Shown: positions 14,139 to 63,429, counted from the first letter of the stretch. The stretch: DNA of 64,000 bases from Pseudobdellovibrionaceae bacterium (GCA_023954155.1 JAMLIO010000001.1:437322-501321), one strand, 5' to 3'. Translations and numbers: made by a program. Notes: generated by a model not told the origin, from the sequence alone.

Positions 14139-14232
14139 AGCCCTAATTTTGACCCCCTTCGTGATGTTTTTTAAGGCTGTTTGGACTACTTTCATCAGCA
14201 AAATACCAACCAATACTAGGGGAGCAAAACTA

Positions 14233-45723: not shown

Positions 45724-45725
45724 GG

Positions 45726-46016: not shown

Positions 46017-46413
46017 TTTTACCCTATCAAAAATTGCCATATATAGCAACTTTATTTTCTAAAATTGATTTCAAAATACCCACAGAGAACTATTGATGGT
46101 TTTATAAGCCTTGATGATTGGAGCGGAATGCAATCTGCTGTACTGAGGCATTGAGAGATATAGGGTTATTCTATGTCCGATCGTCCTAGAGTCGTGAATG
46201 GGATATCGAAGTGGGGGCAAAACAAAACTCTTAAAGTTCTTCTTTTGCAAAGAGTAATTTATATTTGATTTGAGAGATGATGTTACTTAAGAGACGCTAA
46301 ATAGAATAGGTGAACGAACATATCACGCCGTGTAAAACCCATAAATTATAATAAAAAAATCAAACCTGCTGTATACGAGCGGAAGGAAAATAATGGGTTG
46401 AGGGGTGTTTTGT

Positions 46414-47058: not shown

Positions 47059-48306
47059 ATGGATGTTGCCTACATTATATTTCCAATCCTATTGATTGCC
47101 GTAGTTTTAGCGTCCGTTTGGTTGGAGAGATGGAGTGTGCCCATTATTTTAGTGGCACTGGGCGCAGGGATCCTGTTTGGCAGCGATTTTCTTAATCTTA
47201 TGGCCTTTGACAACTTTGTTCTGGCAAATCAAATCGCCAACCTTGCTCTAGTCTTTATCCTCTTTAATGGTGGGCTTTTAACCAAAAGGGTGGATTTTCG
47301 TGCCGTAGCACTGCCCGCAGGGGGCTTGGCCACTTGGGGCGTAATTCTGACAGCCCTTGTGTTGTTTTTATGCCTCCATATCGGGTTGGGGTGGTCTTTA
47401 GAGCTCTCTATCCTTCTTTCTGTCATCATTTCGTCAACAGATGCGGCCGCTATTTTTTCTATCCTACGTCGTCAGTCCTTACCTACAAAACTTTCTTCTA
47501 CTGTAGAAATTGAAAGCGCGGCTAACGACCCTATGGCGGTGTTATTGACCACAGTGGCAGTAGCAAGTCTAAGTGGTGGTGAGAGTTTTGGTCTTACAAC
47601 GGTTCTGTCTTTTTTCTGGAAGTTTGGGGTAGGACCTATCATTGGTTTTCTTATTGCTCGTTGTGCTGTGTGGACCTTCAACCGCTTAACCACACAAGAC
47701 AGAGGCTACTATTACATTTTATTTATCGCCTTTGTTCTTCTTATGTTTGGCGTATCCGAGATGGCTCAAGCCAGTGGTATGCTTGCGGTGTTTACGGGTG
47801 GTTATGTTCTGGGAAATTCTACTTATGTGCATCGACGAGGTGTTTTGAATTTTTCAGATGCCGTTTCTACCACAGCAAACATCGGGATGTTTGTGTTAAT
47901 GGGAGTCTTAGTATTCCCCAAACAATTAGCAAACGTTTGGCTTGAAGGGACTCTTTTGTTCTTAGCCCTTTCTTTTGTTGCGCGTCCTGTAGCAGTTTTT
48001 GTGGGAACTTTGGGCATGGGCATTAAAATTCGGCATAAAATATTTGCGAGTTGGGCAGGTCTGCGTGGAGCCGTACCTATTGTTCTTGCCACTTATCCCG
48101 CAGCGGCAGGGATGGATATCGCCAACGATGTGTTTAATCTTGTTTTCTTTGCTGTTCTTCTTTCAATCATGATTCAAGGTTCTACACTGGGCATGGTAGC
48201 CAAGTGGTTAAAGCTTTCGCTTCCTGCGCGCCCCAAGCCACTTGACCTCCTCCCCAAAAAGAAGGCCATGGGTATCTTTAGAAGCGTCGTGACAAGTGGT
48301 CCTTAA
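47059..48306 (+). CDS. CPA1-family cation:proton antiporter (NhaP2/CvrA-like), 3' end replaced by IS sequence
   Basis: About 394 native codons of polytopic antiporter (SSTDAAAIFSILR, ESAANDPMAV). From 48243 onward the last 21 codons and the stop are read from the IS3 left end. Confidence 0.8.
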   Translation: MDVAYIIFPILLIAVVLASVWLERWSVPIILVALGAGILFGSDFLNLMAFDNFVLANQIANLALVFILFNGGLLTKRVDFRAVALPAGGLATWGVILTALVLFLCLHIGLGWSLELSILLSVIISSTDAAAIFSILRRQSLPTKLSSTVEIESAANDPMAVLLTTVAVASLSGGESFGLTTVLSFFWKFGVGPIIGFLIARCAVWTFNRLTTQDRGYYYILFIAFVLLMFGVSEMAQASGMLAVFTGGYVLGNSTYVHRRGVLNFSDAVSTTANIGMFVLMGVLVFPKQLANVWLEGTLLFLALSFVARPVAVFVGTLGMGIKIRHKIFASWAGLRGAVPIVLATYPAAAGMDIANDVFNLVFFAVLLSIMIQGSTLGMVAKWLKLSLPARPKPLDLLPKKKAMGIFRSVVTSGP

Positions 48307-48323
48307 AGCCCTAAGGAGGATAA

Positions 48324-48590
48324 ATGAAAAAAACAAGATACACAGAAGAACAGATCGTGCACGCCCTTCGCAGAGCCGAGTCTGGCGAACGAGCCAAGGA
48401 AGTTTGTCGTAGCCTAGGAATAACCGAGCAAACTTTTTATACATGGAAGAAGAAGTATGCAGGGTTAGGGATAAGTGAGCTACGCAAGCTAAAACAGCAA
48501 GAAGACGAGATTCGTCGTTTAAAGAACCTAGTAGCAGACCTCATGCTGGATAAACAAATGCTCCAAGAGGTGGTTCAAAAAAAGCTCTAA
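48324..48590 (+). CDS. IS3-family transposase OrfA (HTH)
   Basis: 88 aa beginning [45 protein letters not shown], followed by a leucine zipper. This is the typical IS3/IS407 OrfA. Confidence 0.9.
48578..48584 (+). promoter_or_regulatory. programmed -1 ribosomal frameshift site A AAA AAG
   Basis: The slippery heptamer lies in the orfA zero frame (codons AAA AAG at 48579-84). The -1 frame is open from 48578 straight into orfB. Confidence 0.75.
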
Positions 48591-48622
48591 AACCTGCTAA
48601 GAGACGCGATCTTGGTCAGTGG

Positions 48623-49429
48623 TTGGTCAAGAATTTTCGCGTGAGCCATCGTAGAGTTTGCAGGTTATTGCGTCTGGCTCGGTCAACATATGACTATAAG
48701 AACCACCCTAGAGATGATCGTGCAGTTCGGGAAAAGATCATCAGCATAGCGCAATCAAGGCCACGTTATGGCTGTCCACGCATACATGTCTTACTTAGGC
48801 GTGAAGGCTGGAAGGTTAATCACAAAAGGGTTCATAGGATTTATAAGGAAGAGCAGTTATGGGTACGCACCAAGAAAGTTCGTCGCAGAAAATTTACAAC
48901 TGAGCTAAGAGTTACACCTCCTACCCCGACCAATCTTAATCAAGTTTGGACAATGGATTTTGTGCATGACCAGTTGATTGATGGCCGTAAGATACGGATG
49001 TTAACCATAGTTGATAAGTTGAGTCGAGAAAGCCTAGCAATTGATTCTGGGTATGGCCTTAAATCAGAACAGGTTATAGAAACACTAGAGCGTTTAAAAA
49101 TTTTCAGAGGAATTCCAGAGGTTATATGTGTAGACAATGGGAGTGAATTTACATCAAAAAAACTTGATCAGTGGGCTTATATAAATGAAGTAAAGTTACA
49201 TTTTATTAGACCTGGAAAGCCTACAGAAAATGGGCACATAGAATCGTTTAACGGTAGACTTAGGGATGAGTTTTTAAATGCAAATCTCTTTTCAAGCCTT
49301 GAGGACTTCCAAAGAAAGGCGGAAAGATGGCGTATAGAATATAACAATTGGAGACCTCATTCATCAATAGGCAACTTGACACCAAGAGAATTTGCTAGGA
49401 GAAGAATGAATAAACAGACCGCTTGTTAA
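48623..49429 (+). CDS. IS3-family transposase OrfB (DDE integrase domain), expressed as an OrfAB fusion
   Basis: WTMDFV (D), DNGSEFTS (D) and [20 protein letters not shown] (E), the canonical rve domain. Confidence 0.9.
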
Positions 49430-49528
49430 TGCGTTGTCACTCAGAAAGATACTGGCTTTGTCGATGGGGATAGATCAAATGCGTTGTCACTCAGAAAGAT
49501 ACTGGCTTTGTCGATGGGGATAGATCAA
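49429..49528 (+). repeat. perfect 2 x 50-bp tandem duplication inside the IS3 3' region
   Basis: atgcgttgtcactcagaaagatactggctttgtcgatggggatagatcaa occurs at 49429-49478 and again at 49479-49528. The first copy starts at the last base of the orfB stop codon. Confidence 0.95.
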
Positions 49529-49669
49529 TCCTCCACTTCAGTCCGATTATACATGGACTGGTTTTTGGGGGTAGGGTCACCTACTTAGTTTTTATATTTC
49601 ATGTCCGGTTTCATGCGAAATTTTGGGCAGTGATGTACACTCAAACTCATTTTAAAATGGCTCACGATC

Positions 49670-51160
49670 TTGTCTTTGTGTTTGCATATAGACCATGTTG
49701 TGACCAATGCTTTCCCTCTTTATGTTAGAAGACAACCTGAAGCCTCTCTCCTTCATCAAATATTTAAAAATCATTGGCTGGATTTTTTAAGTTCTATACA
49801 AAACCATGAAGATGAGAAAATTCTTCCAAGTTTTGTCATTAAAGAAATAGAGGATTATTTTAAATGCGGAGTTTTAGCTAATGGTTTTGTTAGACTTTAC
49901 TGCAAAGACTGTCAAAAAAGCCAACTTGTCGCATTTTCTTGTAAGAGAAGGGGGTTTTGCCCAAGTTGTTGTGCCAAAAGGATGAACTTTACTGCTAGTC
50001 ATTTGATTGATCATGTTCTTCCAAACGTGGGAGTCAGGCAATGGGTATTGTCTTTTCCATTTCAGCTTAGGTTTTTAATGGCATACAACCCAAAGCTTAT
50101 CAGTCAAATTCTTAAAATATTTATTAACGCCATTCAGTTTAGGTATCGAAGAAAGGCCAAAAAGTTGGGTTTTAAAAATACTCAAACAGGAGCTGTCACA
50201 GTTATCCAAAGAGCAGGTGGGGCACTGAATTCTAACGTGCATTTTCATACACTTTTTTTAGATGGCATCTATCATCAAGTGAACGGTAAATTTTGTTTTT
50301 ACTCTGTTCTTGGGCCTAATAATGAGGAACTAAAATCGTTAGCGCAAAAGGTAAGAAAAAAAGTAATTAGGTTACTGGAACGACAGGGCTATTTTGATAC
50401 AGGCCAAGATCAAAATGGATGGGTTCAAGACAGATTAACTCAAGCCTCTATTATGCAGATTTCAATGGCGGGTGATCGATCGGGTAAAATTCTTCGAAGA
50501 CTTAAAAATGAACTTTTTAGAACCTATGTAAAGCATTCTCCTGATGGCGGGGTTAATATCAGTGGCTTTAGCTTACATGCCAATGTGAGGGTCCCAGCAA
50601 ACAAAAGAAAAAAATTAGAAAAACTCTGTCGGTATATCAGCAGAGGACCTGTCGCCACGGGCAGAATGTTTAAACTACCAAGCGGTGATATTGGCTACAG
50701 ACTAAAGCGTCCATGGAATGATGGAACAACACATATTATATTTTCTCCGCAAGAGTTAATAGAAAAACTAGCGGCAATCATTCCACCCCCAAGGGCGAAT
50801 CTTATTCGATATCATGGAATTCTGGCTCCAAATGCTAAGAGTAGGAGTCAGATTGTGCCAAAACTAAAAAGATCAGTTGAAAAAGAAAAATCTGCATCCA
50901 AGAGAAAAACTAACAACATGACTTGGTCTGAAATGCTAAAACGGGTGTTTTTAATTGACGTCACAAAATGTCAGTTCTGTGGTGGTTCATTAAAATTAAT
51001 CGCTACAATTAAAGAAAAGCAAGCCATCCAAACTATTCTTGAAAGTATGGGGTATTTAGCCGTTGCTCCGAAATTCAAACCCAGTTTGGGACGAGCGCCG
51101 CCCAAACCCAGAACATTCATTCATGATTCTGATGAAAGTCAGCTTCCTGCTAATTGGTAA
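49670..51160 (+). CDS. tnpA: IS91-family Y2 HUH transposase
   Basis: 496 aa with an N-terminal zinc-binding domain (YCKDCQKS...FSCKRRGFCPSCCAKR), an HUH motif (NVHFHTLFLDG) and Tyr motifs (CRYISRGP, LIRYHGILAP). It has a non-ATG start, TTG at 49670 or GTG at 49700. Confidence 0.88.
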   Translation: MSLCLHIDHVVTNAFPLYVRRQPEASLLHQIFKNHWLDFLSSIQNHEDEKILPSFVIKEIEDYFKCGVLANGFVRLYCKDCQKSQLVAFSCKRRGFCPSCCAKRMNFTASHLIDHVLPNVGVRQWVLSFPFQLRFLMAYNPKLISQILKIFINAIQFRYRRKAKKLGFKNTQTGAVTVIQRAGGALNSNVHFHTLFLDGIYHQVNGKFCFYSVLGPNNEELKSLAQKVRKKVIRLLERQGYFDTGQDQNGWVQDRLTQASIMQISMAGDRSGKILRRLKNELFRTYVKHSPDGGVNISGFSLHANVRVPANKRKKLEKLCRYISRGPVATGRMFKLPSGDIGYRLKRPWNDGTTHIIFSPQELIEKLAAIIPPPRANLIRYHGILAPNAKSRSQIVPKLKRSVEKEKSASKRKTNNMTWSEMLKRVFLIDVTKCQFCGGSLKLIATIKEKQAIQTILESMGYLAVAPKFKPSLGRAPPKPRTFIHDSDESQLPANW

Positions 51161-51239
51161 TCTGGAGGTTAGGGCCAAAGTGTGTCTAAATCTATGATTG
51201 CTTTGAAATAACTCTCAAAGAATCTTTAATTTTCCTTTG

Positions 51240-51361
51240 TTAACAGCCCTCTTCTGGCAAAAAAGCCGAAAAACTAGCCAAAGGACCTAGGAAAACCTTC
51301 TGATAATTAACGCTTATGTTTTGACCTGGACTTAAAAAGGGCGTTTGTTTTTCCTATACTC
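51240..51361 (+). repeat. 122-bp IS91 terminal module, copy a (attached to tnpA)
   Basis: ttaacagccctcttctggc...gggcgtttgtttttcctatactc. It is identical to the copies at 57243, 59389 and 63308. Confidence 0.95.
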
Positions 51362-51486
51362 TTATCAAAAAAGGCAAGTATACACAATCCAATGCACACA
51401 ATGTAATATTAAATCCAGATTCTAAAAGCTTAAATGTTTTATACAATGATGTGATTTTAAACTAAGACAAAAAGTAAGAGTTTAAT

Positions 51487-51999
51487 CTAAATCATGTCAT
51501 CTAAGAAATAAGAACTCAGCTGACTGCGTCCATTGAGCTTAGATTTTTTATATATAGATCCACACTGTGCCCTTACCGTTCTTTCATTTGAGCTTCGTAA
51601 ATCAGCAATCTCCTTCAAGGATAAACCTTTAAGAAGAAAACCCGCCACATCAGATTCTGACTTTGTCAGCCCCCATGAGCGAAAGGTGCGTTCGACCTCC
51701 CCTCGAAACTCTTCTTTATAGGTTTTAACCTGTCCCTGTAAAGAGTGAATTTCCGTTTCTCTTTCTTGAAGCTTTTGATGTAAACTTTGAAAAGTAAGGT
51801 TTTTCTTTTGCTCTTGGCGATACCAAATGGCCACAAAATAGTTAAAGCCTAAAATTGACACAAAAAGAACAAAAATCTCGAAGAATAAATGCTTAGCTGG
51901 AATCCCATGTTTGAAATCGAACCAAAGGTCAAAGGCGGCTAAAAGCATTAAACAGGCAAAAAAGATCACTTTTTGTCTGTCCGAATGTAGTAAGGGCAT
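51487..51999 (-). CDS. membrane-anchored LuxR-family HTH regulator
   Basis: 170 aa with two N-terminal TM helices, a coiled-coil and a C-terminal GerE/LuxR HTH (GLSLKEIADLRSSNERTVRAQCGSIYKK). Confidence 0.7.
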   Translation of the reverse strand: MPLLHSDRQKVIFFACLMLLAAFDLWFDFKHGIPAKHLFFEIFVLFVSILGFNYFVAIWYRQEQKKNLTFQSLHQKLQERETEIHSLQGQVKTYKEEFRGEVERTFRSWGLTKSESDVAGFLLKGLSLKEIADLRSSNERTVRAQCGSIYKKSKLNGRSQLSSYFLDDMI

Positions 52000-52109
52000 A
52001 AAATCATCCTAGTATAAAAGTACTAAACAAATATAGTAAGTCTTTAATATAACTACGATTAGTCATAGGCACAATTTACCATTTCATTTTTTAATGCGTT
52101 AATAAGGGT

Positions 52110-53855
52110 ATGAAACGATTAATTTTGGCTTTCTTCCCCCTTATTCTTTTTCTATCAACCCCTAGCTGGTCTCAAACAGAGACAGTCCCTGATACTGACG
52201 ATGTTCCAGAAAATATTGTCAGTATCAGGGAAAACTCAGCACGGATCGAAGACCTTAACGGAGAAATTCAACTTAAATTTGATTTGGATGTTAAAGACGG
52301 TTTCTTTGCGTATGAAGACAAATTTGTTCTCGAAATAGAGTCTTTTCAAACACTTCAACTTAAACTAGATCCCATTGTTTCTTTTTTCGATAAAACATTT
52401 CAAAAGACCAAACGCGGAATTAAAAATAAGGCTCAAGCCGTAGCTTGGCTTTCAGCAAACAACAGCAGCATTTTCCAAACGGACTCTGTTATTTTGAATT
52501 TAGAGTATCAGGCTTGCACCCCAGAGTACTGTTTATTTCCAACCACCACCAAATACAAAATGTCTTTATCCAAAGCCGAGCAAAACCTACTTAAAAATCA
52601 CAACCAACCCTCATGGCTTCAAAAAGGTTTACTGTATGGACTGCTTTTTGCTTTTTTTGCAGGCTTTCTGACTAGCCTCACCCCTTGTGTGTATCCTATG
52701 TTACCCATCACCTTGGCAGCCCTTGGAGCCCAAAAACCAAAAACCCATAAAGAAGGTTTTCTTAAAGGTCTGACCTATGCCCTAGGAATGGCACTAACTT
52801 ACTCCTTACTTGGGGTCTTTGCCGCCACCACAGGATTTATGTTTGGCTCTATTCTATCTAACGTTTATTTCTTAGGGTTTTTAACTTTAATTTTATTTAT
52901 TGCCGCCTTAAGCATGTATGACGTGTTTGAAATTCAAACACCGAGGTTTTTGCAAAATCGATTTTACAAACATCAAAACTCAACATCTTTAGCTGGTCTT
53001 TTTATGACTGGTGTTTTTTCAGGTTTAATCGTTGGTCCATGTGTGGGCCCGGTCCTGATTGGCATTTTAGGATATGTCTCTCAATCCCAAAGTTTTATTC
53101 TAGGATTTGGACTTTTGTTTTCTTTTGCCATGGGTCTAGGAACCTTAATTATTGTTCTAGCCACTTTCTCTAACCTTATCGATAAGATTCCTCGTTCAGG
53201 CACATGGATGATTACGGTTAAAAAAGTGATGGGGATTTTATTTTTAGGTCTTATCTTATATTTCTTAAAACCACTAATGAACATCAGAGAACTCACCGTG
53301 GCTGCATCATTGATCTTTGCCTTGTTTGGTTTGATATTATCTTTCAAATCTTTCTCCTCTTTAGATTATACACTTCTAGAAAAGTCCTTATATCGATCCG
53401 TTTTTATCTTTTTCACTTTATTAGCCATTGCCGTCTCAAGCATTGGCAACGAACGCTTTGAAAGAGTCTTTGGATACAATATGTCCACTTTTGCTGAAAC
53501 CCATTGGGAAACCTACAGTGATGAAATTTTTGAACAGGCAAAACAACAAAACAAATATATCATTTTAGATTTTTATGCGGACTGGTGTGCCGCTTGCCGA
53601 GAACTCAAACACAACACATTTTCTGAGCCAGGAGTCATACACTACTCCGACTCGATCATGTGGGTTTATTTTGACTCAACTCGATCAACAGCCAAACTTG
53701 AATCCCTAAAAAAACAATATGGAATTATTGGACTTCCCACGATATTATTTTTTAATTCCTCAGGACAAATTCAAAAAGATTTAACTTTAACAGGATTTGA
53801 AAATGCAGAAAACTTTATTCAACGCCTTAATAAACTGACTCAAAAACCAAACTAG
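52110..53855 (+). CDS. dsbD: thiol:disulfide interchange protein DsbD family
   Basis: 581 aa with a signal peptide, an N-terminal domain, a DsbD transmembrane core (LTPCVYPMLP, VGPCVGP) and a C-terminal thioredoxin domain (WCAACRE). Confidence 0.85.
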   Translation: MKRLILAFFPLILFLSTPSWSQTETVPDTDDVPENIVSIRENSARIEDLNGEIQLKFDLDVKDGFFAYEDKFVLEIESFQTLQLKLDPIVSFFDKTFQKTKRGIKNKAQAVAWLSANNSSIFQTDSVILNLEYQACTPEYCLFPTTTKYKMSLSKAEQNLLKNHNQPSWLQKGLLYGLLFAFFAGFLTSLTPCVYPMLPITLAALGAQKPKTHKEGFLKGLTYALGMALTYSLLGVFAATTGFMFGSILSNVYFLGFLTLILFIAALSMYDVFEIQTPRFLQNRFYKHQNSTSLAGLFMTGVFSGLIVGPCVGPVLIGILGYVSQSQSFILGFGLLFSFAMGLGTLIIVLATFSNLIDKIPRSGTWMITVKKVMGILFLGLILYFLKPLMNIRELTVAASLIFALFGLILSFKSFSSLDYTLLEKSLYRSVFIFFTLLAIAVSSIGNERFERVFGYNMSTFAETHWETYSDEIFEQAKQQNKYIILDFYADWCAACRELKHNTFSEPGVIHYSDSIMWVYFDSTRSTAKLESLKKQYGIIGLPTILFFNSSGQIQKDLTLTGFENAENFIQRLNKLTQKPN

Positions 53856-53863
53856 GAACACAT

Positions 53864-54310
53864 ATGAAAAACTTAATAGCTTTATTTATCACTCTTAGTG
53901 CCCTTTTACTTTCATCTTCTTCATGGGCTCAAGACACTCAGCTTGATCTTTCCCAATACAAAGGAAAAGTTGTTTATTTAGACTTTTGGGCCTCGTGGTG
54001 CGGCCCATGCAAAGAGTCCTTTCCTTGGTTAAATGAATTAAAGAAAAAATATCCAGATTTAAAAATCATTGGTGTCAACTTAGATAAAGACAGTAAAACA
54101 GCGGATGAGTTTCTAAAAAAATATCCTGCTGATTTTGATATTATCTACAATCCGAAAGGAGATATGGCCGAAAAGTTTAAAGTTAAAGGCATGCCATACA
54201 GTGTGATTTATAACAAAAAAGGGGAAAATAAATTTTCTCACATCGGGTTTTCAAAAGCCAAATCACAAAAATATATTGAAGAGATTGAAAATCTTTTAGG
54301 GGAAAAATAA
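53864..54310 (+). CDS. TlpA-like periplasmic thioredoxin-family oxidoreductase
   Basis: 148 aa with a signal peptide and FWASWCGPCKESFP. Confidence 0.85.
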   Translation: MKNLIALFITLSALLLSSSSWAQDTQLDLSQYKGKVVYLDFWASWCGPCKESFPWLNELKKKYPDLKIIGVNLDKDSKTADEFLKKYPADFDIIYNPKGDMAEKFKVKGMPYSVIYNKKGENKFSHIGFSKAKSQKYIEEIENLLGEK

Positions 54311-54531
54311 TGAAAAACACCACAGGATTATTGATATTTATTGCTCTAATTTTTTTAAATGGATGCACTCATTTAGGTGTTAAACCTTGGGAAAGAGATC
54401 GTCTCTCTAAGCCTGAAATGCAATTCGGTGTGAACTCCAATGAAGATGGTTTTGATGATCACACCTATTTTAGCAAAGAAGGCTCAAGTGGTGGTCGTAG
54501 CTTTAGCGCAGGGGGATGCGGATGCAACTAA
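54310..54531 (+). CDS. DUF4266-like small lipoprotein
   Basis: 73 aa with lipobox LNGC and a C-terminal GGCGCN, as I recall for DUF4266. It overlaps its neighbours and is probably translationally coupled. Confidence 0.65.
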   Translation: MKNTTGLLIFIALIFLNGCTHLGVKPWERDRLSKPEMQFGVNSNEDGFDDHTYFSKEGSSGGRSFSAGGCGCN

Positions 54532-55886
54532 GACCCGAGAAAAAAAGACGTATTGGTAAATTGGTCGCAAATGCCTCTTTGTCATTACTGTGCATGACAA
54601 CATCCGTGAATACAAAAGCCGAAGAGACTAAAAATTCTCTGAATACTCCTAAACAAGAGCAAAGTGGTTTTTTTGTCAAAAATTATAATTCTTTAAAAAA
54701 CTGGGCCAAGTGGAAAGGACAAGCCGGTTTCCTGAATTACTCTGAAAGTGATGGACGAATTCAGGTCTCTGAAGCAGCCTTGCAACTGAGCGCTGAATTC
54801 GAAAATGAAAGAGTGTGGACCAACAAATTGGTTTTTGACAGCTTAACTGGTGCTTCTCCGAATGGAGCCATCAATAGCAATCAACCCCAAACCTTCACAA
54901 CACCCTCTGGAAAATCAAACTACACTGTGAACCCCGGAGAAATTCCTCTTTTCCAAGGATTTAAAGACACACGAGTCAATATCTCTTCTACATGGTCTCA
55001 ACCTATTTCAAGATTATGGAAAATTGCTGCCGGCTTTAACGGTTCCAATGAATATGACTATCTGTCATTAGGCTTAAACACCATGTTAACAAAAGAGTCC
55101 GAAGATAAAAACTCTACCTATTCTTTAGGGTTTTCTTTCACTCAAGACACCATAGACCCTGTCGGCGGTGTACCAACTGCTTTGGCAAGTATTGTTCCTG
55201 CAGGTTCACCTCAACCACGCTCTGGAGTGTCTGAAAATAAAACCACTCTTGATTTTCTATTAGGCTACACACAGGTCATGAGTCGATCATGGCTTATACA
55301 AACCAATGTCTCTTTAGGATTGTCTTCGGGATATATGAACGATCCTTATAAGGTGGTCACTGTATTTGATAATACTCCTGGCCCATCTTTAGGAAATCCT
55401 CTGGATTATATTTATGAGAATAGACCCGATACAAGATTTAAGCGTAGCTTTTATATCGCGTCTAAAAATGATTTAAACTATGGCATACTGACGACCTCAT
55501 ATCGTTTTTTAAATGATGACTGGGGACTTAGTTCTCACACCTTTGAAGGAACATTTAATTTTGGAATTTTACCAAAATGGAGACTCGAACCTGGCTTTAG
55601 ACTTTATTTACAAAGTGCTGTGGATTTTTATAAGTATGCCTTAGCCAACAACGCGACAGCACCACTTTATATCACTGCAGATAATCGTTTAGGAGACATG
55701 ACCACTATTGCACCTGCTCTTAAAATCATTCGTAAGCTCGAAGACGAAAAAGAACTGAGTTTGATCTTAAGATACTATTTGCAAACTGGTGATTCGTCTC
55801 CAAGCTCTGCGGTTGGAAGTCAAATTGGTCAAGATTTGTTTCCAAATGTGAGTGCATTTATAATTCAACTCCATTATTCTTTTTAA
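54516..55886 (+). CDS. DUF3570-like predicted outer-membrane beta-barrel protein
   Basis: 456 aa with a signal peptide, a beta-strand-rich sequence and the C-terminal ...QLHYSF. It has the conserved neighbourhood of DUF4266, ApbE and thioredoxins. Confidence 0.6.
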   Translation: MRMQLRPEKKRRIGKLVANASLSLLCMTTSVNTKAEETKNSLNTPKQEQSGFFVKNYNSLKNWAKWKGQAGFLNYSESDGRIQVSEAALQLSAEFENERVWTNKLVFDSLTGASPNGAINSNQPQTFTTPSGKSNYTVNPGEIPLFQGFKDTRVNISSTWSQPISRLWKIAAGFNGSNEYDYLSLGLNTMLTKESEDKNSTYSLGFSFTQDTIDPVGGVPTALASIVPAGSPQPRSGVSENKTTLDFLLGYTQVMSRSWLIQTNVSLGLSSGYMNDPYKVVTVFDNTPGPSLGNPLDYIYENRPDTRFKRSFYIASKNDLNYGILTTSYRFLNDDWGLSSHTFEGTFNFGILPKWRLEPGFRLYLQSAVDFYKYALANNATAPLYITADNRLGDMTTIAPALKIIRKLEDEKELSLILRYYLQTGDSSPSSAVGSQIGQDLFPNVSAFIIQLHYSF

Positions 55887-56765
55887 ATGATATTGGATCA
55901 AAGTTATAAATTTATCGACTATCAAGATTATAAGGCCCACTCATTTTATTGCATGGGGGGCCTTTGCGAAGTTTTGGTAGAAACACAAGATAAAAATCAG
56001 TCTCTACAGGTCTTCCAAAAAGTTTATCAAGAGGTCAAACGTTTAGAAAAAAAATATAGCCGATATGAAAAAGGCAATATTATTGATCAGGTCAATACAG
56101 CAAATGGAAAAAAAATTAAAATTGATGAAGAGACTTTTCGTCTTTTAAAATTTGCTGACACTTTATTTCACGCCAGTCATGGGATGTTTGATATCACGTC
56201 TGGAGTTTTACGCCGCGCTTGGATTTTTGATCAGAGCAATAACATTCCACCTAATGAACAGATTCTTCCACTTCTAAATTTAATAGGCTGGCAAAAAGTG
56301 GAATTTAATAAAAACTTTGTTCGTCTACCTGATGGCTGGCAATTGGATTTTGGAGGAATCGGCAAAGAGTATGCCGCGGACCGTGGAGCTCAACTTGCGC
56401 ACGAATTAAATTTAGCTCCCACACTTGTTAATCTGGGTGGAGACATTGCTATTACTGGTCCAAAAAGAAATGGATCTGGCTGGAAAATAGAACTTGATGA
56501 AGAACAAGATGCATTAATTCTTCTGTCAGGTGGTGTGGCCACAAGTGGGGATAAAAACAAATACTTGCTACAAAATGGAAAAAAGCTCTCGCATATTTTA
56601 AATGCAAAAACAGCTTATCCCGTAGAAGATGCGCCTCGATCCACCACCGTCGTCGCCTCCACTTGCACCGAAGCTGGAGCCTTATCCACATTAAGTATGT
56701 TATACGGCAAAGATGCCGAAAAGTTTTTAAAAGAAGAAGCTCAAGATTTTCGTGTTTTTAGATAA
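55887..56765 (+). CDS. apbE: FAD:protein FMN transferase
   Basis: 292 aa in the ApbE family (FDITSG, DFGGIGKEYAADR, LGGDIA, GVATSGD). Confidence 0.88.
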   Translation: MILDQSYKFIDYQDYKAHSFYCMGGLCEVLVETQDKNQSLQVFQKVYQEVKRLEKKYSRYEKGNIIDQVNTANGKKIKIDEETFRLLKFADTLFHASHGMFDITSGVLRRAWIFDQSNNIPPNEQILPLLNLIGWQKVEFNKNFVRLPDGWQLDFGGIGKEYAADRGAQLAHELNLAPTLVNLGGDIAITGPKRNGSGWKIELDEEQDALILLSGGVATSGDKNKYLLQNGKKLSHILNAKTAYPVEDAPRSTTVVASTCTEAGALSTLSMLYGKDAEKFLKEEAQDFRVFR

Positions 56766-56790
56766 TTATTTTAACCAAAAAAAGGGCTAC

Positions 56791-57246
56791 ATGTTTAAAA
56801 AAGTTCTATTTAGTTTGCTGTCCATTTTAATATTTAAATTCAACGCACACGCCTATTCTTTTGATACTTTTAAAAAAGAAGTGACCTCTCCTTTCACGAC
56901 AAATGCAAAATATTATCTTTTGTCTGGATCCATTTTGACTACGATTTTAGTCTTTGATGGCGTTGAAGATTCTTTAGGTCATCGAATTCAAGACGACACC
57001 GTCGAAGACAAACCACTTGGCAGCTATTCGACCTATGGAGATTTGGCAGGTCAAATGGTTCCTAACGCTTTATACACTCTCGGGTTTTATACAGCGTATT
57101 GGATTTCAGATAATCCTGAATTCAGAAAAAAATCCATTTTGATGTTAAAAGCTACTGCGTACTCTGGACTTGTGACTTCAGTGCTTAAAGTGACAATCCG
57201 TGAGCCTCGCCCAAACGGAAATAATCGCCATTCTTTTCCATCTTAA
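56791..57246 (+). pseudogene. PAP2-family phosphatase, 3'-truncated by 122-bp repeat copy b
   Basis: Signal/TM region then the C1 motif KVTIREPRP. The sequence ends ...SFPS where the PSGH (C2) motif should continue. The TAA stop (57244-46) lies inside the repeat, and the C3 motif SRx5Hx3D is absent. Confidence 0.75.
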
Positions 57247-57364
57247 CAGCCCTCTTCTGGCAAAAAAGCCGAAAAACTAGCCAAAGGACCTAGGAAAACC
57301 TTCTGATAATTAACGCTTATGTTTTGACCTGGACTTAAAAAGGGCGTTTGTTTTTCCTATACTC
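57243..57364 (+). repeat. 122-bp IS91 terminal module, solo copy b
   Basis: Identical to 51240-51361 and in the same orientation. No transposase gene is adjacent. Confidence 0.95.
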
Positions 57365-57511
57365 GATTGTAATAAAAACCCAATTATAGGTCGTCACAAT
57401 TAATATAAAGTATATCATTTAAAGATGTGTAGCTTTCATTTTTATGGAGCCAATTGTAATCTAAGAAAATAATATTTTGGTAGAAAGTTTAATTCTATTG
57501 GGGGTTGAATA

Positions 57512-58393
57512 GTGGTAGAAAATATTTTTAGAATATTTGAAGAAAATAATGTGGAGGCAACTCGCTTTTCTAGCTTCCCTTCCATTAAATCAAATTACAT
57601 AAGTAATTATGCTGATGCAATAGCTTTGTCTGAGAGATTAAATAATGAGGCATCAAAAAACATCAAAGAAGATAAATATATTTTTCATGCAAATATATTA
57701 ACCCACTTTGAGTATTTTTTTGATAAAAAAAATAAAGAAAAATTAGACAAAGATTTGTTATTGAATATACTCCCCTTAATTCTTGGTGGGTACGATGCCT
57801 ATCTTAGCGTTGTCAGTGGTTTTTATAATAGATCGAATTTAACTATGTCAGTTGTTGGAAGGTCTCTTTTTGAAGGTTTGATAATATTGCTAACAATTAA
57901 TAATGATAAAAATCTAGCGAAACAATATTACCGATATAAAGAAATTGAGAAATTAAAATTTCAAATGCGAGAAGAAGAAATAACAAACGAAGAGTTTCTT
58001 AGGATATTAAAAAATGATTTTCCCGAATGGTATTCTGAAATTGGTCGTATTAGAAGAAAAAAAATAGGCAATTGGTTAGGAGTTGAGCAGTACTCGTTAA
58101 GAGACTTGGCGGTTACTTTAGATAAAGAAAAGCAATATAAATCATTTTACAAAGTTTATAGTTTGTATTCACATATGCAGCCATCAATAATTAATCACTA
58201 CAATCTTTCAGGGGGAGTATTGAATACAAATCTAAGTAATCTGAATCAACAATATTGTATAATGTTGGATATTGCTTTTGACTATATAATTACTATCTAT
58301 AAGTTGTTTGGTCTGGATGACCTAGCTGTGGATTTAGAAGCTCAGAAAAATATTACTCTGTTTAGTTTGCAAAAATATCAAGAATCATTGTGA
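57512..58393 (+). CDS. hypothetical protein (293 aa), orphan
   Basis: GTG start, AT-rich codon usage and an all-helical composition. It may be DUF5677-like (GRSLFEGLI..., YSLYSHMQPS), but that is only an impression. Confidence 0.5.
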   Translation: MVENIFRIFEENNVEATRFSSFPSIKSNYISNYADAIALSERLNNEASKNIKEDKYIFHANILTHFEYFFDKKNKEKLDKDLLLNILPLILGGYDAYLSVVSGFYNRSNLTMSVVGRSLFEGLIILLTINNDKNLAKQYYRYKEIEKLKFQMREEEITNEEFLRILKNDFPEWYSEIGRIRRKKIGNWLGVEQYSLRDLAVTLDKEKQYKSFYKVYSLYSHMQPSIINHYNLSGGVLNTNLSNLNQQYCIMLDIAFDYIITIYKLFGLDDLAVDLEAQKNITLFSLQKYQESL

Positions 58394-58451
58394 TGATAAA
58401 ATAGTCTTAAAATAATTAAACTGATATAGATATAAGGTTTATAAAGAGGTG

Positions 58452-59117
58452 CTATTTAAACCAATTTTGTCGATTATTCCAAAATTGTATATCTTTATGT
58501 TTCTTATGAATTTTATAATATTCTAGGTAATCAATGATTTTTTTTACTTGCTCATCTGATTTACCATATTTTTCAAATATATTTCTTAGCTCATCGGTTG
58601 TAATGGATTGTATATTTTTATGTATTGTTTCCCTATCGTTTTGCCATTCATCCATGCGTTCAGCTGGAACGGCTCTATGAGTGATTGTATGTGTTATTAA
58701 ATAACCAACATAGTCATGTTCGACCCATGTATGCCAGTTTTCTTGAATGGATTTAATTTCATTTTTTGGAATTTTTAAGTCTGTTAATAAGCTTTGGATA
58801 TCACTATATACTTTTTCTTGTTGTTGATCGTTAAAGCCGCCCCAGCGATTACTTGTTTGAACTAGTTCAAGTATCATGTAAGAGACGGTTTTTGCTAAAG
58901 ACCTAAGTTCGTCTAATGCTGACTCAACTCTTTGAAGTTCTATTTTAGATCCCATAAAGCTTATAGATTGTATAACAGATGGGTTTGCCAAAAGTATGAA
59001 AAAAACAGTAAAAAAAGTCCAAACAAGCAGCTTTGAAATTGAAGGATCTGGTATATAACTTAAATAAATCACTCCGATAAAACATATAAAAGCCACGATA
59101 TTAAATAATATTTTCAT
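58452..59117 (-). CDS. hypothetical membrane-anchored protein (221 aa)
   Basis: Two N-terminal TM helices plus a helical cytoplasmic domain. It lies downstream of the truncated XRE gene on the same strand. Confidence 0.5.
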   Translation of the reverse strand: MKILFNIVAFICFIGVIYLSYIPDPSISKLLVWTFFTVFFILLANPSVIQSISFMGSKIELQRVESALDELRSLAKTVSYMILELVQTSNRWGGFNDQQQEKVYSDIQSLLTDLKIPKNEIKSIQENWHTWVEHDYVGYLITHTITHRAVPAERMDEWQNDRETIHKNIQSITTDELRNIFEKYGKSDEQVKKIIDYLEYYKIHKKHKDIQFWNNRQNWFK

Positions 59118-59193
59118 TTACACTGAGCCTTCAAAAATATATTGGATAGTAGCGAAGAATACTAAATATTTATGAATTTTTATATAGTAATGA

Positions 59194-59388
59194 CTATTCA
59201 AAATCAATCAGTTTTTTGATTGGGACATATAGGGTGTTGGCTATTCTGGCTAAAGTAAACACCTCAGGACTAGTTAAGCCGTTTTCAATTTTACTTATTG
59301 TGCCCCTAGAAAATCCAGCTTCCAAGCAAAGCCTGTCCTGACTATAGCCCTTTTGTTTGCGAACCTTCGAAATATGTGCGCCTAATTT
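59194..59388 (-). pseudogene. XRE-family HTH gene lacking its start codon (5' end removed at repeat copy c)
   Basis: Not in the track. The reverse frame reads KLGAHISKVRKQKGYSQDRLCLEAGFSRGTISKIENGLTSPEVFTLARIANTLYVPIKKLIDFE*. The codon before the first K is a TAA formed by the repeat edge, and no in-frame start precedes the HTH. Confidence 0.7.
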
Positions 59389-59510
59389 TTAACAGCCCTC
59401 TTCTGGCAAAAAAGCCGAAAAACTAGCCAAAGGACCTAGGAAAACCTTCTGATAATTAACGCTTATGTTTTGACCTGGACTTAAAAAGGGCGTTTGTTTT
59501 TCCTATACTC
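59389..59510 (+). repeat. 122-bp IS91 terminal module, solo copy c
   Basis: Identical to the other three copies and in the same orientation. Confidence 0.95.
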
Positions 59511-59632
59511 AAGGTAGAACTCGAAAGCCCAAAGCCAACACAACCATGAGGTGTGATCCTTTTAAAAGGTAGAATAAAAAATTTGACAGCGACTTTTAAA
59601 AAATTTTGGTTAAAAAAGGGAGAAAATTTAAT

Positions 59633-60061
59633 ATGTTAAATTTGAGGCAACACATATTCGTTAGTAATTATTTGGTTTCATTCAATGCAACAGATTCCTA
59701 TAGAAAGGCTTACTCAACTGCGAATTTACGAACTGCTGAAGTGAATGGGGCCCGATTGCTGAGAAATGCTGAGGTTAAAGCGGAAATTAACAAAGAAAAG
59801 GCCCTTTGTATTAAAAGAAATCGTTTGGAAGTGGATTGGGTCATTAGTAGACTTATGATGATTGCAGATACCCCGATGTTCTTCGGAATCAATTTATCAG
59901 AAGATAATCTGTTGGACTATTTTTGGAAAAACCTATCTGGCGTGAAAAAGTTCAGGTACAGAAAAAAGGGCAATTTCTTACACTTTAAAGTTGAAATGCA
60001 GGATAAAATTGAAGCACTAAGTTTGCTTGGTCGATATTTGGTGCTAAGGGATTTGAGGTAA
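59633..60061 (+). CDS. phage terminase small subunit-like protein (Terminase_2/P27 type)
   Basis: LRQHIFVSNYLVSFNATDSYRKAYSTANLRTAEVNGARLLRNAEVKAEI matches the conserved N-terminal HTH of the P27-family TerS. The ATG at 59633 follows a gggaga RBS. No large terminase gene lies nearby. Confidence 0.7.
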   Translation: MLNLRQHIFVSNYLVSFNATDSYRKAYSTANLRTAEVNGARLLRNAEVKAEINKEKALCIKRNRLEVDWVISRLMMIADTPMFFGINLSEDNLLDYFWKNLSGVKKFRYRKKGNFLHFKVEMQDKIEALSLLGRYLVLRDLR

Positions 60062-60189
60062 TCCGCAATGATAATATTTTATATTTTAACCATCGGTTCA
60101 AATATAAAATATTGCCATATAATAAATTAAGAGCTCATCTGTTTAGCAATTAGAGTCTCTACATTTTTCAAACCATGATTTTTATCTTT

Positions 60190-60438
60190 TTAATAACTTG
60201 ATTGATACACATTGCTCTGCTCTGTCCTACAATCGTAACCAGAACACACTTGCCTTGGCGTATGGTCTTCGTGCTGGTCTTTGGGCAAATGAGAATTGTA
60301 TTCGTCGTTGATATTACCCCCATATTCCTGACCACAGCCCCATTCGCTACATACTTCGATTATGATGTCCCCGTCTTGGAACGCATTTGCATTCGCTTGT
60401 ACTATTAAAAATGTAAATAAAACTAATATTTGTTTCAT
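60190..60438 (-). CDS. small secreted cysteine-motif protein (82 aa)
   Basis: Signal peptide (...VQANANA), then two similar motifs, CSEWGC and CSGYDC. Confidence 0.45.
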   Translation of the reverse strand: MKQILVLFTFLIVQANANAFQDGDIIIEVCSEWGCGQEYGGNINDEYNSHLPKDQHEDHTPRQVCSGYDCRTEQSNVYQSSY

Positions 60439-60494
60439 ACTTTATCCTTTGAAATTCTTAAATAATTCGAATTGGTTCATTAAAGTTTACGTTA

Positions 60495-60971
60495 CTATGC
60501 AATATCACTTAATTTTTCATGAGATCTAGCTGTATTGAGGAAGTATTCTTGAAGTTGAACAAGTTTGTTGCCTATATGATCGCAAGCTACTGATCGTTCA
60601 AAGTCATTTTGCAATTTAAAGGTTAATGAACGGGATTCCATTCTTTTGATTAAGTTAGCTAAATTATAGGCATTATAAACATTTCCAACATTTTGAATAG
60701 TTAGGATTGTACCTACACCAAAGATAAAACAACCTAAGCCGCTTGCAAGTCCTTCAAAATAGAATATTGATCCTGTTGAAGCCAAATAAACTAGTGTGGC
60801 TACTATAAAAACATGGGCATCTTTTGGATCTGATATAGCGTCTTGAAGGCCATTAGGTTTAACTTTAAGAACGTCGTTACTGACTATTGCTTGTCCAAAT
60901 AATAGATCGGTTTTCGAGCGTCTAAAAATTATTCCAATGGCAATAACAGAAGCAAAAAATAAAACATACAT
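60495..60971 (-). CDS. hypothetical membrane protein (158 aa)
   Basis: Three or four TM helices plus a C-terminal soluble tail. It lies immediately upstream of the Cys-motif peptide on the same strand. Confidence 0.45.
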   Translation of the reverse strand: MYVLFFASVIAIGIIFRRSKTDLLFGQAIVSNDVLKVKPNGLQDAISDPKDAHVFIVATLVYLASTGSIFYFEGLASGLGCFIFGVGTILTIQNVGNVYNAYNLANLIKRMESRSLTFKLQNDFERSVACDHIGNKLVQLQEYFLNTARSHEKLSDIA

Positions 60972-61245
60972 AAAGTCCCCCGCGTGAGTTATACAATTGC
61001 AACAAGTTCGCCAAACCAGATCCTATATAACCTCTTTGACTGTCCAAAAATTTAATAAATGACCTAACAATATGCAGATTTCTACATAGCCACTGGTTTT
61101 TAGCCGGCATAGAAACTCGACCATAAACATCTGAAATAGCTAAACTTTTTAATTTAAAACGTCATTCGTATTGTTGTGATACGAAATTTAGTTGACAAAA
61201 GATTACAAAAGTTGCTAATAGCCAGTCTGGATGGTACAATAAAGT

Positions 61246-62370
61246 ATGGATAAAAGATTAAATACTACGCTTATCGAAGACCGAATGCTCGAGGAAGGGT
61301 TATCGCAAACTGACCTTGCAAGCAAAATTGGTGTGACTAGGACGTGCATATCGTCTTGGCTTAAACCGGAAAAGATGCCACGTCCAAGGCATATCCTAAA
61401 ATTAAGTGAGATATTGAATCTGACATTCAAAGAGATTTTAATTACTAATCAAGCTAGGCCCCAAGTTGCATTTCGGAAAAGTGGTAATTATAAGATTACG
61501 GACAGTCATAGGCAGAAGTTTGAGTATACGACAACACTGCTATCAAAATTAACTAAATATTTGCCATTTGAACCACTATTTTCGGCACCCTCTTTTATAG
61601 ATCCAAAAGTAGATTATATCTATATCCAAAAGGTGGCTCAGAGTATCCGTAATAAATTCCATATATCTAACAGTATTATTGAAAATGAAAAATTGGTTGA
61701 AATCTTCAGGAATATCCAGGCAGTACTGGTGCCGGTTATGTGGGGAAGAAAACACTATAAAATGGCAACCCATATTTATTTGCCGGATAGCCAAACCACA
61801 TGGGTTTTCGCTAATATCAATGCTAATATTTATGATTTCAAGTTTTGGTTATCCCATGAATTGGGTCATGCTTGTGCTCCGAATTTATTAGACCAGGAAG
61901 GCGAGGACTTCGCTGATTCTTTTGCTGGTGAATTACTTTTCCCTTCAACTGAAGCAAAGATTGCTTATGAAAAAATTATTTCTAATTCAGATAAGGATGA
62001 AAAAGTAAGGGTTATTCAAACAATAGCCAAGGACTTTAAGATCTCACCGATTACAATTTATAAACAGATAGAAAAGTATATTAAACATAACGATTTTGAA
62101 ACTTTAGGCCTTGAAAAAATTATTTACAGATACAGTCAGGCTTTCAATAGTGCGAGTTCTGTAAGTGAGTTGCTTTTCCAGTCTGAACAGCCTGATGTAA
62201 AGGTGTATATTAAGGAATCACAGGATTATTTTAAAACAGATTTTTTTAAGATTTTGAGAAATTATATTACAGAGAATGATGCTGACCCTAAATTCGTAGC
62301 TAATCTCATGGACATCCCATTAAGCGATGCATATGCAATATTTGAAGAAATTAGCGTTGCTAAGGCTTAG
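61246..62370 (+). CDS. XRE HTH fused to an ImmA/IrrE (COG2856) zinc metallopeptidase domain
   Basis: 374 aa with an N-terminal HTH (GLSQTDLASKIGVTRTCISSWLK), the motif SHELGHAC (HEXXH) and DFADSFAGELLFP, typical of ImmA/IrrE. Confidence 0.8.
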   Translation: MDKRLNTTLIEDRMLEEGLSQTDLASKIGVTRTCISSWLKPEKMPRPRHILKLSEILNLTFKEILITNQARPQVAFRKSGNYKITDSHRQKFEYTTTLLSKLTKYLPFEPLFSAPSFIDPKVDYIYIQKVAQSIRNKFHISNSIIENEKLVEIFRNIQAVLVPVMWGRKHYKMATHIYLPDSQTTWVFANINANIYDFKFWLSHELGHACAPNLLDQEGEDFADSFAGELLFPSTEAKIAYEKIISNSDKDEKVRVIQTIAKDFKISPITIYKQIEKYIKHNDFETLGLEKIIYRYSQAFNSASSVSELLFQSEQPDVKVYIKESQDYFKTDFFKILRNYITENDADPKFVANLMDIPLSDAYAIFEEISVAKA

Positions 62371-62372
62371 TG

Positions 62373-62936
62373 ATGAAGCAGCAGAAGTTTTTAGTTGATT
62401 CAAATGTTTATTTCCGACTAGCTCAATCAATTCATCCACTGCTTTGTAACCCAATGGGCCCAAATAGGATTACTCTTTATATTATATCTGAGTTTGAATT
62501 AGAGTATTTTCGAGGCGCAGAGCTTCAGAATAAATTTGGATGGGTTGAATCCGAAGATTATGCCTTAAATCGTAGAAAATTTATCCCTCTCAGTAAAAAA
62601 CAAAAATTTCGTAGGGAGAATGCAATCGATGCTATGGCGGATACATCTTCAGAAATGCGGCTTACAACTGGACTCGCTGATATCAAGGCTTTAGCTCACG
62701 CTTATGCTGCTGAAATTACCATTCTTACTGATGATTCAGATCTCATAAAACTCGCACTTGAGTTTGAGGTTAAATTTTTGAAATTAGCCCAATTCCTCAA
62801 ACTGTTAGTCGATGAAGGTATTCTGCAAATTGGCAGAGTGAGAGAGATATATAATTATTTAGAAGAAATGAAAGATTTCCCGAAAAATTTCGAATCTGAT
62901 TGTAAAGCAATTTTTGGAGTAGGTTGGAATAGCTAA
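62373..62936 (+). CDS. PIN-like nuclease candidate (DUF4411-like)
   Basis: The start overlaps the ImmA stop (TAGTGATG). FLVDSNVYF at the N-terminus and ILTDDSDL near the C-terminus sit where PIN-fold acidic residues are expected. This family partners with COG2856, as I recall from comparative TA surveys. Confidence 0.55.
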   Translation: MKQQKFLVDSNVYFRLAQSIHPLLCNPMGPNRITLYIISEFELEYFRGAELQNKFGWVESEDYALNRRKFIPLSKKQKFRRENAIDAMADTSSEMRLTTGLADIKALAHAYAAEITILTDDSDLIKLALEFEVKFLKLAQFLKLLVDEGILQIGRVREIYNYLEEMKDFPKNFESDCKAIFGVGWNS

Positions 62937-62942
62937 ATATTT

Positions 62943-63272
62943 CTAATTGTTGAATTCCATAAGTGGAAACGCAATGTTGTCCGGATCTTGTCGCTTCGGC
63001 GGTTCTTTCTTCCATACGATTTCAGATAGCCAATATTCTACTGTGGAATAGCCGAGTTCAATATCTTTGCCAAAACCAACAATATGATATCCGCCGTCTG
63101 CGGAAACGCCATTGAAACCGTCAAAAGATTTGGCCCTATCCCAAAGGTAGTCTTTCTCGAATATTTTCTTTCCATGGCGGTTTTTTACTAAAAAGTTGAT
63201 ACGATATTTTTGGACTTTTTCAGTGACACAAGTTTTGTCGTTAAACATACAGGGCTGCTTGGACATTCTCAC
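62943..63272 (-). CDS. hypothetical protein (109 aa)
   Basis: Open frame with plausible coding composition. I recognise no family. Confidence 0.4.
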   Translation of the reverse strand: MRMSKQPCMFNDKTCVTEKVQKYRINFLVKNRHGKKIFEKDYLWDRAKSFDGFNGVSADGGYHIVGFGKDIELGYSTVEYWLSEIVWKKEPPKRQDPDNIAFPLMEFNN

Positions 63273-63307
63273 TTTGGCTAAAGTTCCCCAGCCTACTGAA
63301 CATATGC

Positions 63308-63429
63308 TTAACAGCCCTCTTCTGGCAAAAAAGCCGAAAAACTAGCCAAAGGACCTAGGAAAACCTTCTGATAATTAACGCTTATGTTTTGACCTGGACT
63401 TAAAAAGGGCGTTTGTTTTTCCTATACTC
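63308..63429 (+). repeat. 122-bp IS91 terminal module, solo copy d
   Basis: Identical to the other three copies. It marks the return to higher-GC sequence carrying the lipocalin gene. Confidence 0.95.

Follow-up and report, generated by a model that had tools for sequence, protein, structure and literature searches.

Elements of the ISCR group are, to our knowledge, known almost solely from the antibiotic-resistance regions of clinical Proteobacteria, and the assembly of complex multi-gene regions by these elements is still debated on the basis of static maps. An 82-bp stretch of the IS91 right end suffices as a functional origin (PMC13181058), and when Bardaji et al. trapped transposition products of the IS91-family element IS801, 26% of them were right-end fragments of 229, 360 or 679 nt ending at internal tetranucleotides, and rare products also carried upstream DNA (PMC3189936). 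For ISCR28, a "sandwich" is described in which a remnant supplies an extra origin end (oriIS) on the far side of a resistance gene and capture proceeds via two sequential oriIS, as far as this work is summarized where it is cited in PMC12772301. Transposase-less origin ends and origin-cargo-origin layouts are thus known behaviours of the IS91/ISCR family. Here, we describe a locus in a 64,000-nucleotide stretch of DNA from Pseudobdellovibrionaceae bacterium (GCA_023954155.1, JAMLIO010000001.1:437322-501321), hereafter the window, in which an ISCR-like element is followed by three further copies of its terminal 122 bp, and unrelated cargo segments lie between the copies. Both the ISCR-like element and its host group are new, and a further feature that does seem new is a discrete origin-only module with an inner edge conserved across distant relatives, recurring as co-oriented ladders. 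A first-pass annotation, made from the window sequence alone, had noticed the repeats and had assumed that an IS91-type origin stays attached to its transposase and that an origin-cargo-origin layout matches nothing described. Neither assumption holds, the former in view of the IS801 fragments and the latter in view of the ISCR28 "sandwich", so far as the citing source describes it, and of the extra co-oriented ends that are common in relatives.

The transposase gene and its repeated origin end

The tnpA product carries the Pfam domains Y2_Tnp (E 8e-28) and Zn_Tnp_IS91 (E 2e-16), and in tblastn comparisons it is 41-42% identical over about 90% of its length to the transposases of ISCR2 (ISVsa3) and ISCR1. 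Its true start is probably a GTG near 49700, its best plasmid match is on a Bdellovibrio plasmid, and its closest relatives are 72% and 92% identical. The oriIS box of the window (AAAAGGGCGTTTGTTTTTCCTATAC), which lies in the last 25 nt of the 122-mer, aligns with those of ISCR2 (AAAAGGGCGTTTATTCTTCCTATAC) and ISCR1 (AAAAGGTGGTTTATACTTCCTATAC), and the box ends 200-230 bp after the transposase stop codon in the three elements alike. Moreover, 12 family members can be aligned over the last 50 nt, and a hidden Markov model (HMM) made from that alignment recovers all four copies in the window. Because of the transposase domains, the similarity to ISCR1 and ISCR2, the alignment of the origin boxes at a like distance and the recovery by the HMM, the 122-mer can be assigned as the oriIS end of an ISCR-like IS91-family element in a Bdellovibrionaceae genome, and the first-pass identification as an IS91-type origin end was right. 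Since 82 bp of the IS91 end are enough, the 122-bp module should, by analogy, be a complete origin. The right end of the element was set by the oriIS alignment and the left end by alignment to the 72%-identical relative (L001/L002), whose contig begins at the homologous GAGCATTTT; hairpins at the left end are clear in this relative and only weak in the window, which holds a single full copy.

With up to three mismatches allowed, the 122-mer matched the 64-kb window exactly four times, in each case with 0 mismatches and on the plus strand, and it had no match in 100 shuffled sequences. When the copies were aligned with their flanks, identity ran from TTAACAG through CCTATACTC in all four, and the flanks on both sides were unrelated. 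Copies b, c and d (Table 1) therefore match the last 122 bp of the master copy at 100% identity, and no tnpA remnant was found beside any of them. The number, coordinates, orientation and sharp edges of the copies reported at first pass were all confirmed, and the distance of about 80 bp then given between the transposase gene and copy a was measured as 79 bp from the stop codon. That the four copies do not differ at any base suggests that the events were recent. A repeat scan of the entire 64-kb window gave no further family of this kind and no inverted partner, and neither the 122-mer nor the window proteins had an exact match in the genome contigs, metagenome contigs and gene-position index searched, among which the source genome is not included. 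No inverted repeats were found between 48 and 64 kb, and no direct repeats flank any copy, with the reservation that the right half of the copy b target is absent and a duplication there is not strictly excludable. The label of miniature inverted-repeat transposable element was rejected for the 122-mer, which has no terminal inverted repeats and no target-site duplications. Single-strand folding energies of the 122-mer were like those of shuffled sequences (z -0.23 and 0.06), and no Rfam match and no tRNA were found from 49.4 to 64 kb.

An outward sigma-70-like site (TTAAAA, 17 nt, TATACT) is present at 51332-51360, at the end of every origin module (a-d), and a plus-strand gene begins about 95-150 bp beyond each of copies b, c and d. 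This is reminiscent of the outward POUT promoters of ISCR1, and the number of such sites (2 found, 1.2 expected) is not above chance.

Inner edges, breakpoints and arrays in relatives

The left, or inner, edge of the module adjoins a box, TCTTTAATTTTCCTTTG, which the 72% and 92% relatives (Logan contigs L001-L003) share at 100% identity; in these contigs the non-coding DNA past the stop codon is conserved through ...CTTTAATTTTCCTTTGTTAAYAG and then diverges within the module. A search of metagenome contigs with the box gave five chance matches, none of them with a transposase. For more distant relatives, 80 loci were taken with 10-kb flanks, and extra copies of the downstream region of each element were sought. 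In a Bacteriovoracaceae metagenome-assembled genome (MAG; L007, 46% amino acid identity), a transposase-less copy of 122 bp lies 0.86 kb downstream of the element and starts at the homologous position. In a Myxococcales MAG (L046), solo modules of 82 and 88 bp lie 3.2 and 5.7 kb downstream; the L009 contig opens with a copy of 134 bp that begins in the same alignment column and whose left flank is not visible, and L083 has an extra copy of 228 bp. In the parent elements of the window, L007, L009, L046 and L017, a box of the form GYKTTTRTTTKMCYRG stands directly before T..(C/A)AG, the position at which the extra copy starts. The same edge is thus used in three of the three solo copies of the window, with homologous edges in L007, L046 and apparently L009, which is the recurrent, sequence-determined inner end expected of IS801-type miniatures. 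As the same alignment column is used in elements only 42-46% identical in protein, this pattern argues for a site-specific cleavage or termination event at the inner edge rather than a random deletion. Independent identical deletions of three full copies were considered and rejected, given the three identical edges here and the homologous edges in other genomes. We also asked whether the inner box duplicates the origin box (pseudo-origin), an idea that is unsupported beyond a weak lead.

Left of copy b, the 5' part of a PAP2 gene occupies 56791-57242, and its 164-aa open reading frame (ORF) ends at the copy, whereas a homologue of 243 aa that is 96% identical has the full PAP2 motifs and reads ...SFPS/GHTASAF... 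across the breakpoint. A contig with the intact gene (L092) is 95% identical in DNA to 56719-57243, the end of ApbE included; the match stops at 57242/57243, and the contig continues with TGGCCATACAGC..., encoding ...PS/GHTASAF...SRINDNAHRLHD. This continuation occurs nowhere in the window. The join between PAP2 and the 122-mer is base-exact, and the 3' third of PAP2 is lost. A 79% homologue (L093) lies in another gene neighbourhood and gives no synteny information. Left of copy c, a minus-strand XRE gene (59194-59388) abuts the module with a complete HTH_3 domain and without its first few codons, and no right flank in the window supplies the start. Beyond copy d, a lipocalin-type gene starts and the GC content is 0.43, and the right (origin) flanks are intergenic. 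The first-pass reading of these sites, that copy b cuts a PAP2 gene, copy c removes the start of an XRE gene and copy d marks the return to normal GC, was borne out at each of them. The two interrupted genes, PAP2 with its 5' part and XRE with its 3' part, adjoin solo copies at the inner edge only, and in L046 a relaxase ORF is likewise open right up to the inner edge of one solo copy. This asymmetry fits the prediction for one-ended transposition from an origin without a terminator, because replication would enter the DNA left of the module and the other half of the gene would stay at the donor site.

Comparable architectures were found among the relatives. In L039, an origin module of 79 bp stands in perfect tandem with the element's own end. 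In L059, a full copy is followed by a 5'-truncated copy that abuts the origin end and starts at an internal AGCA right after ...CCTATC, AGCA being among the tetranucleotides found after the other copies of that element. On a Nitrospirales chromosome (OZ245007; L077, 11583-12865), about 3.3 tandem units of 394 bp each consist of the last 99 bp of an ISCR-like element and 295 bp of flank; two more solo origin ends lie 3.5 and 4.6 kb beyond this tandem array. In these three loci, new origin-bearing pieces appear to have landed exactly at a resident origin junction. Over the window and the loci of the relatives, the HMM census gave 71 origin-like ends, every one of them co-oriented with tnpA and none inverted, and at least 12 had no tnpA upstream. 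Arrays like that of the window are present in the chromosome-level assemblies L077, L083 and L025.

Two further observations were made on these loci. Three MAGs binned as Bdellovibrionales, Nitrosomonas and Chlamydiae (L009, L010 and L013) are 93-100% identical over 510 bp around the transposase start (450 bp upstream and 60 bp of the gene), L009 has resolvase, ParA and Replic_Relax genes upstream of the transposase, and a solo origin module is present some 6 kb upstream in both L009 and L013; the sharing may reflect a plasmid-borne composite moving between hosts, or a binning error. In a long-read Bdellovibrionales MAG (L053), two ISCR-like tnpA genes (2215-3210 and 14104-15243) each carry an inserted IS4-like DDE transposase gene, at nearly the same codon, which suggests that the interrupted element was itself duplicated. 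These "truncated" copies were rejected as rolling-circle truncations, since the tnpA genes are split by the IS4-like element.

Table 1 Features of the ISCR-like locus, with positions counted from the first letter of the window
Feature	Position	Strand	Description	Basis
IS3-family element	48310..49527	+	just upstream of the ISCR-like element; orfA 48324-48590, orfB 48623-49429	Pfam HTH_Tnp_1, rve/rve_3
ISCR-like IS91-family element	49556..51361	+	master copy; right end firm, left end approximate	
tnpA	49670..51160	+	Y2 HUH transposase with N-terminal zinc-binding domain, 496-aa ORF	Pfam
Conserved box	51222..51239	+	immediately left of the 122-mer inner edge; proposed secondary termination site	
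Copy a	51240..51361	+	oriIS module, terminal 122 bp of master copy	repeat search, flank alignment, ori HMM
Segment 1	51362..57242		LuxR-type regulator (-), DsbD, redoxin, DUF4266, DUF3570, ApbE, 5' two-thirds of PAP2	Pfam
Copy b	57243..57364	+	solo oriIS module, inner edge fused to PAP2 codon 151	
Segment 2	57365..59388		GC about 0.31; DUF5677 protein, 221-aa protein (-), XRE helix-turn-helix (HTH) gene (-)	Pfam
Copy c	59389..59510	+	solo oriIS module, inner edge fused to 5'-truncated XRE gene	
Segment 3	59511..63307		GC about 0.35; terminase small subunit, 158-aa protein (-), HTH + M78 protein (RmrA-like) and downstream partner, 109-aa ORF (-)	
Copy d	63308..63429	+	solo oriIS module where chromosomal-type DNA resumes	

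Proposed formation of the ladder

The solo copies are, on balance, probably miniature derivatives of the origin end that arose by early-stopping rolling-circle transposition, after which the origins, having no terminator, would have captured and stacked the DNA to their left. The Y2 HUH transposase would start rolling-circle transposition at the right edge, ...TTCCTATAC(TC), and proceed leftward, and in this lineage replication would often halt 122 bp in, just past the conserved box. Such an early halt would free a transposase-less "mini-ori" module that could be mobilized in trans. A solo module of this kind would have a complete origin and no proper terminator, so that later events would run into the left-hand DNA (one-ended transposition) and take a piece of it along. 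The resulting units of cargo and origin would insert at, or next to, the site where a resident origin is nicked, or would recombine via the 122-bp homology. Segments 1-3 would then be units of captured DNA and origin that were added successively at the junction of the master copy or of an earlier unit, and the outcome would be a co-oriented ladder to the right of the master copy. The nature of the module, its site-specific inner edge, the base-exact PAP2 breakpoint and the matching layouts in relatives are shown by the sequences compared here, and we infer the order of events, the capture by read-through and the insertion at the origin junction. Of the two explanations offered at first pass, a miniature unit mobilized in trans, of which one edge is the origin and the other a premature stop, is the best-supported, with the inner edge coinciding with that of solo modules in distant relatives.

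Several points weigh against this account. No solo copy is a simple insertion with contiguous flanks, and direct transposition of the 122-mer is unobserved here; the simple insertions typical of IS801-type miniatures have no counterpart, as L092 matches only the left flank of copy b. No consistent target tetranucleotide accompanies the copies (right flanks TTAT, GATT, AAGG and CAGT, with no consensus; TGGC in the intact PAP2 allele), which leaves the IS91 rule unverified. The left-side tetranucleotides (CATG, TTTG, CATC, ATGC and ATTT) resemble CTTG loosely, and the constant terminal (A)CTC could itself be the IS91-type tetranucleotide. With one full element copy in the data, the terminator end (terIS) is left undefined. 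In local alignments against controls, the inner box resembled the origin box weakly in the window (p about 0.04) and in L009 (p about 0.07), and not significantly in L007, L046 and L039. Finally, the source is a MAG, and most genomic IS801 fragments were attributed to rearrangement and not to transposition, the element mainly giving homology for recombination (PMC3189936).

If homologous recombination built the ladder, simple insertions of the 122-mer into PAP2, into an XRE gene of a prophage-like element and near the lipocalin gene would have been followed by RecA-dependent exchange, or by integration of circles bearing one copy, which gave the deletions and juxtapositions. This would account for copies that are 100% identical and co-oriented and for junctions that all lie exactly at a repeat edge, and it agrees with the reorganization favoured by Bardaji et al. 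for most genomic IS801 fragments (PMC3189936). However, 122 bp is a short substrate, and an integrated circle should hold the halves of a gene at opposite ends of a segment, whereas the PAP2 3' part is absent from the left end of segment 1 and from the whole window, and no clear XRE start stands at the left end of segment 2. When segment right ends were joined to left ends, and every left flank to every right flank, PAP2 was never restored, and the XRE join read ...ITI/KLG... with no start codon, which does not support circle integration by recombination. Recombination also leaves unexplained the tandem or abutting origin modules in relatives and the cut genes at inner edges only, and we therefore regard it as unlikely. 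An assembly artefact, in which the assembler threaded unrelated segments of the same or other genomes through the shared 122-bp repeat, is suggested by the MAG source, by the GC of segments 2 and 3 (0.30-0.36, against about 0.42 in the rest of the window; segment 1, about 0.37), by the position of all joins at repeat edges and by the short-read contigs of relatives, which break near the region. Nevertheless, each left and right junction must exist in the reads, so that the fusions of solo copies with PAP2 and XRE stand however the junctions are paired. The repeat is also shorter than the largest k-mer that common assemblers use, 150-nt reads can span it, the contig has a length of 590 kb, and comparable arrays stand in chromosome-level assemblies, and we regard such an artefact as highly unlikely.

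It is also conceivable, and in our view very unlikely, that the locus acts as an origin-to-origin cassette platform, in which the transposase nicks at one origin and terminates at the next, and the excised circles of cargo and origin re-integrate at resident nick sites as an integron-like store. Among Y2 enzymes, termination at a second origin is established, for instance for the phiX174 gene A protein; we know of no demonstration of termination at an origin in the IS91 family, and IS91 uses a distinct terIS. The units of the ladder are bounded exactly by the right edges of origins, tandem units of origin and flank with modules precisely at origin junctions occur in L077, L039 and L059, and the ISCR28 "sandwich" involves capture of a gene by two sequential oriIS, so far as it is described where cited in PMC12772301. 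The platform, which was the second explanation of the first pass, agrees with all that was observed. The array can be obtained without such a mechanism, and early stopping followed by one-ended capture remains the account that we prefer.

A defined site of secondary termination within the origin region is suggested by the conserved inner edge, and the box together with the 122-bp module provides a testable handle on non-autonomous IS91-type derivatives and on their capture and stacking of adjacent DNA. A broader proposal, which we rate as quite unlikely, is that ISCR-like elements of Bdellovibrionota and of other environmental bacteria possess a second, programmed cleavage site some 80-130 bp inward from the origin end that gives rise to solo origin modules, and that modules and master transposase together form a cassette platform, which by origin-to-origin nicking would excise any DNA between two co-oriented origins as a circle and re-insert it at another origin junction. 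If this were true, the platform would be a rolling-circle analogue of the integron that gathers defence and accessory genes beside the element, and if the modules act as recombination sites, gene shuffling by rolling-circle elements would be more organized than is now assumed. A free 122-nt module would give a junction of CCTATACTC to TTAACAG, and circles of cargo and origin would give junctions of CCTATACTC to GATTGTAATA, to AAGGTAGAAC and to TTATCAAAAA.

Cargo, surroundings and comparison with known systems

The three segments measure 5881, 2024 and 3797 bp, in agreement with the 5.9, 2.0 and 3.8 kb estimated at first pass. Pfam confirmed the gene labels (GerE/LuxR, DsbD, a TlpA-like redoxin, DUF4266, DUF3570, ApbE, DUF5677, Terminase_2 and HTH_3 + Peptidase_M78), except for "PIN", for which the match is faint (E 0.07). 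A Bdellovibrionaceae MAG encodes a protein 100% identical to the 221-aa protein of segment 2. In segment 3, the 374-aa protein with HTH and M78 peptidase domains (61246-62936 region) matches the RmrA models of PADLOC (best E 1e-11), and the overlapping downstream ORF of 188 aa is the one with the faint PIN match. RmrA serves as antitoxin in the RosmerTA defence system, and a defence pair of RosmerTA type may be present in segment 3 beside an orphan terminase small subunit. The RmrA-like and DUF5677 proteins had no relatives in scans of viral contigs, and no integrase domain was found among the ORFs scanned with Pfam from 47 to 64 kb.

The surroundings of the element hold other mobile or small genes. 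The final 50 bp of the IS3-family element occur twice in perfect tandem (49428-49527, ending ...GATAGATCA and overlapping the orfB stop); this duplication lies just before the left end of the ISCR-like element. A Na+/H+ exchanger gene (47059-48306) stops 17 bp before the IS3 orfA, and a minus-strand pair of small genes at 45421-46049 (107 and 100 aa, the latter HTH-like) has the appearance of a toxin-antitoxin pair. As a whole, the region at 44-63.4 kb, which is flanked by the ribonucleotide reductase gene and the lipocalin gene, resembles a variable island.

Compared with the described systems, the locus is closest to ISCR1, ISCR2/ISVsa3 and ISCR28, with which it shares the transposase domains (41-42% identity), the oriIS box at a like distance and the lack of terminal inverted repeats, as well as the captured unrelated DNA and extra origin-bearing remnants flanking the cargo that the ISCR28 "sandwich" exhibits in the summary available from its citing source. 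It differs in that it resides on a Bdellovibrionaceae chromosome and carries cargo other than antibiotic resistance, that no GTTC/CTTG-type tetranucleotide can be recognized beside the origin, and that its extra copies, instead of being irregular remnants, are three occurrences of a single discrete 122-bp module whose inner edge is conserved. Together with the relatives, it extends ISCR architecture to environmental predatory bacteria and other phyla. Like the IS801 miniatures, which are made when origin-started transposition stops internally and are mobilized by the full element (PMC3189936), the solo copies are transposase-less, continuous right-end fragments of recurrent discrete size. Unlike those miniatures (229, 360 and 679 nt, simple insertions, with a tetranucleotide start like the left end of the IS), the module here is 122 bp long, its start site is conserved across elements 42-46% identical in protein, and all three solo copies lie at junctions of unrelated DNA.

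Two more distant comparisons can be made. With Helitrons, the locus shares HUH/Y2 rolling-circle transposition from one defined end, capture of flanks after the terminator has been bypassed, and both numerous non-autonomous copies and ends arrayed in tandem; since Helitrons are eukaryotic, with a helicase-fused transposase and other end signals, the likeness is one of logic only. With the cassette arrays of integrons, it shares co-oriented short recombination-type sites that separate unrelated segments beside the gene of the acting enzyme. In contrast to integrons, it has no tyrosine-recombinase integrase, attI or attC, its segments carry several genes, some of them truncated, in both orientations, and its repeats are origin ends.

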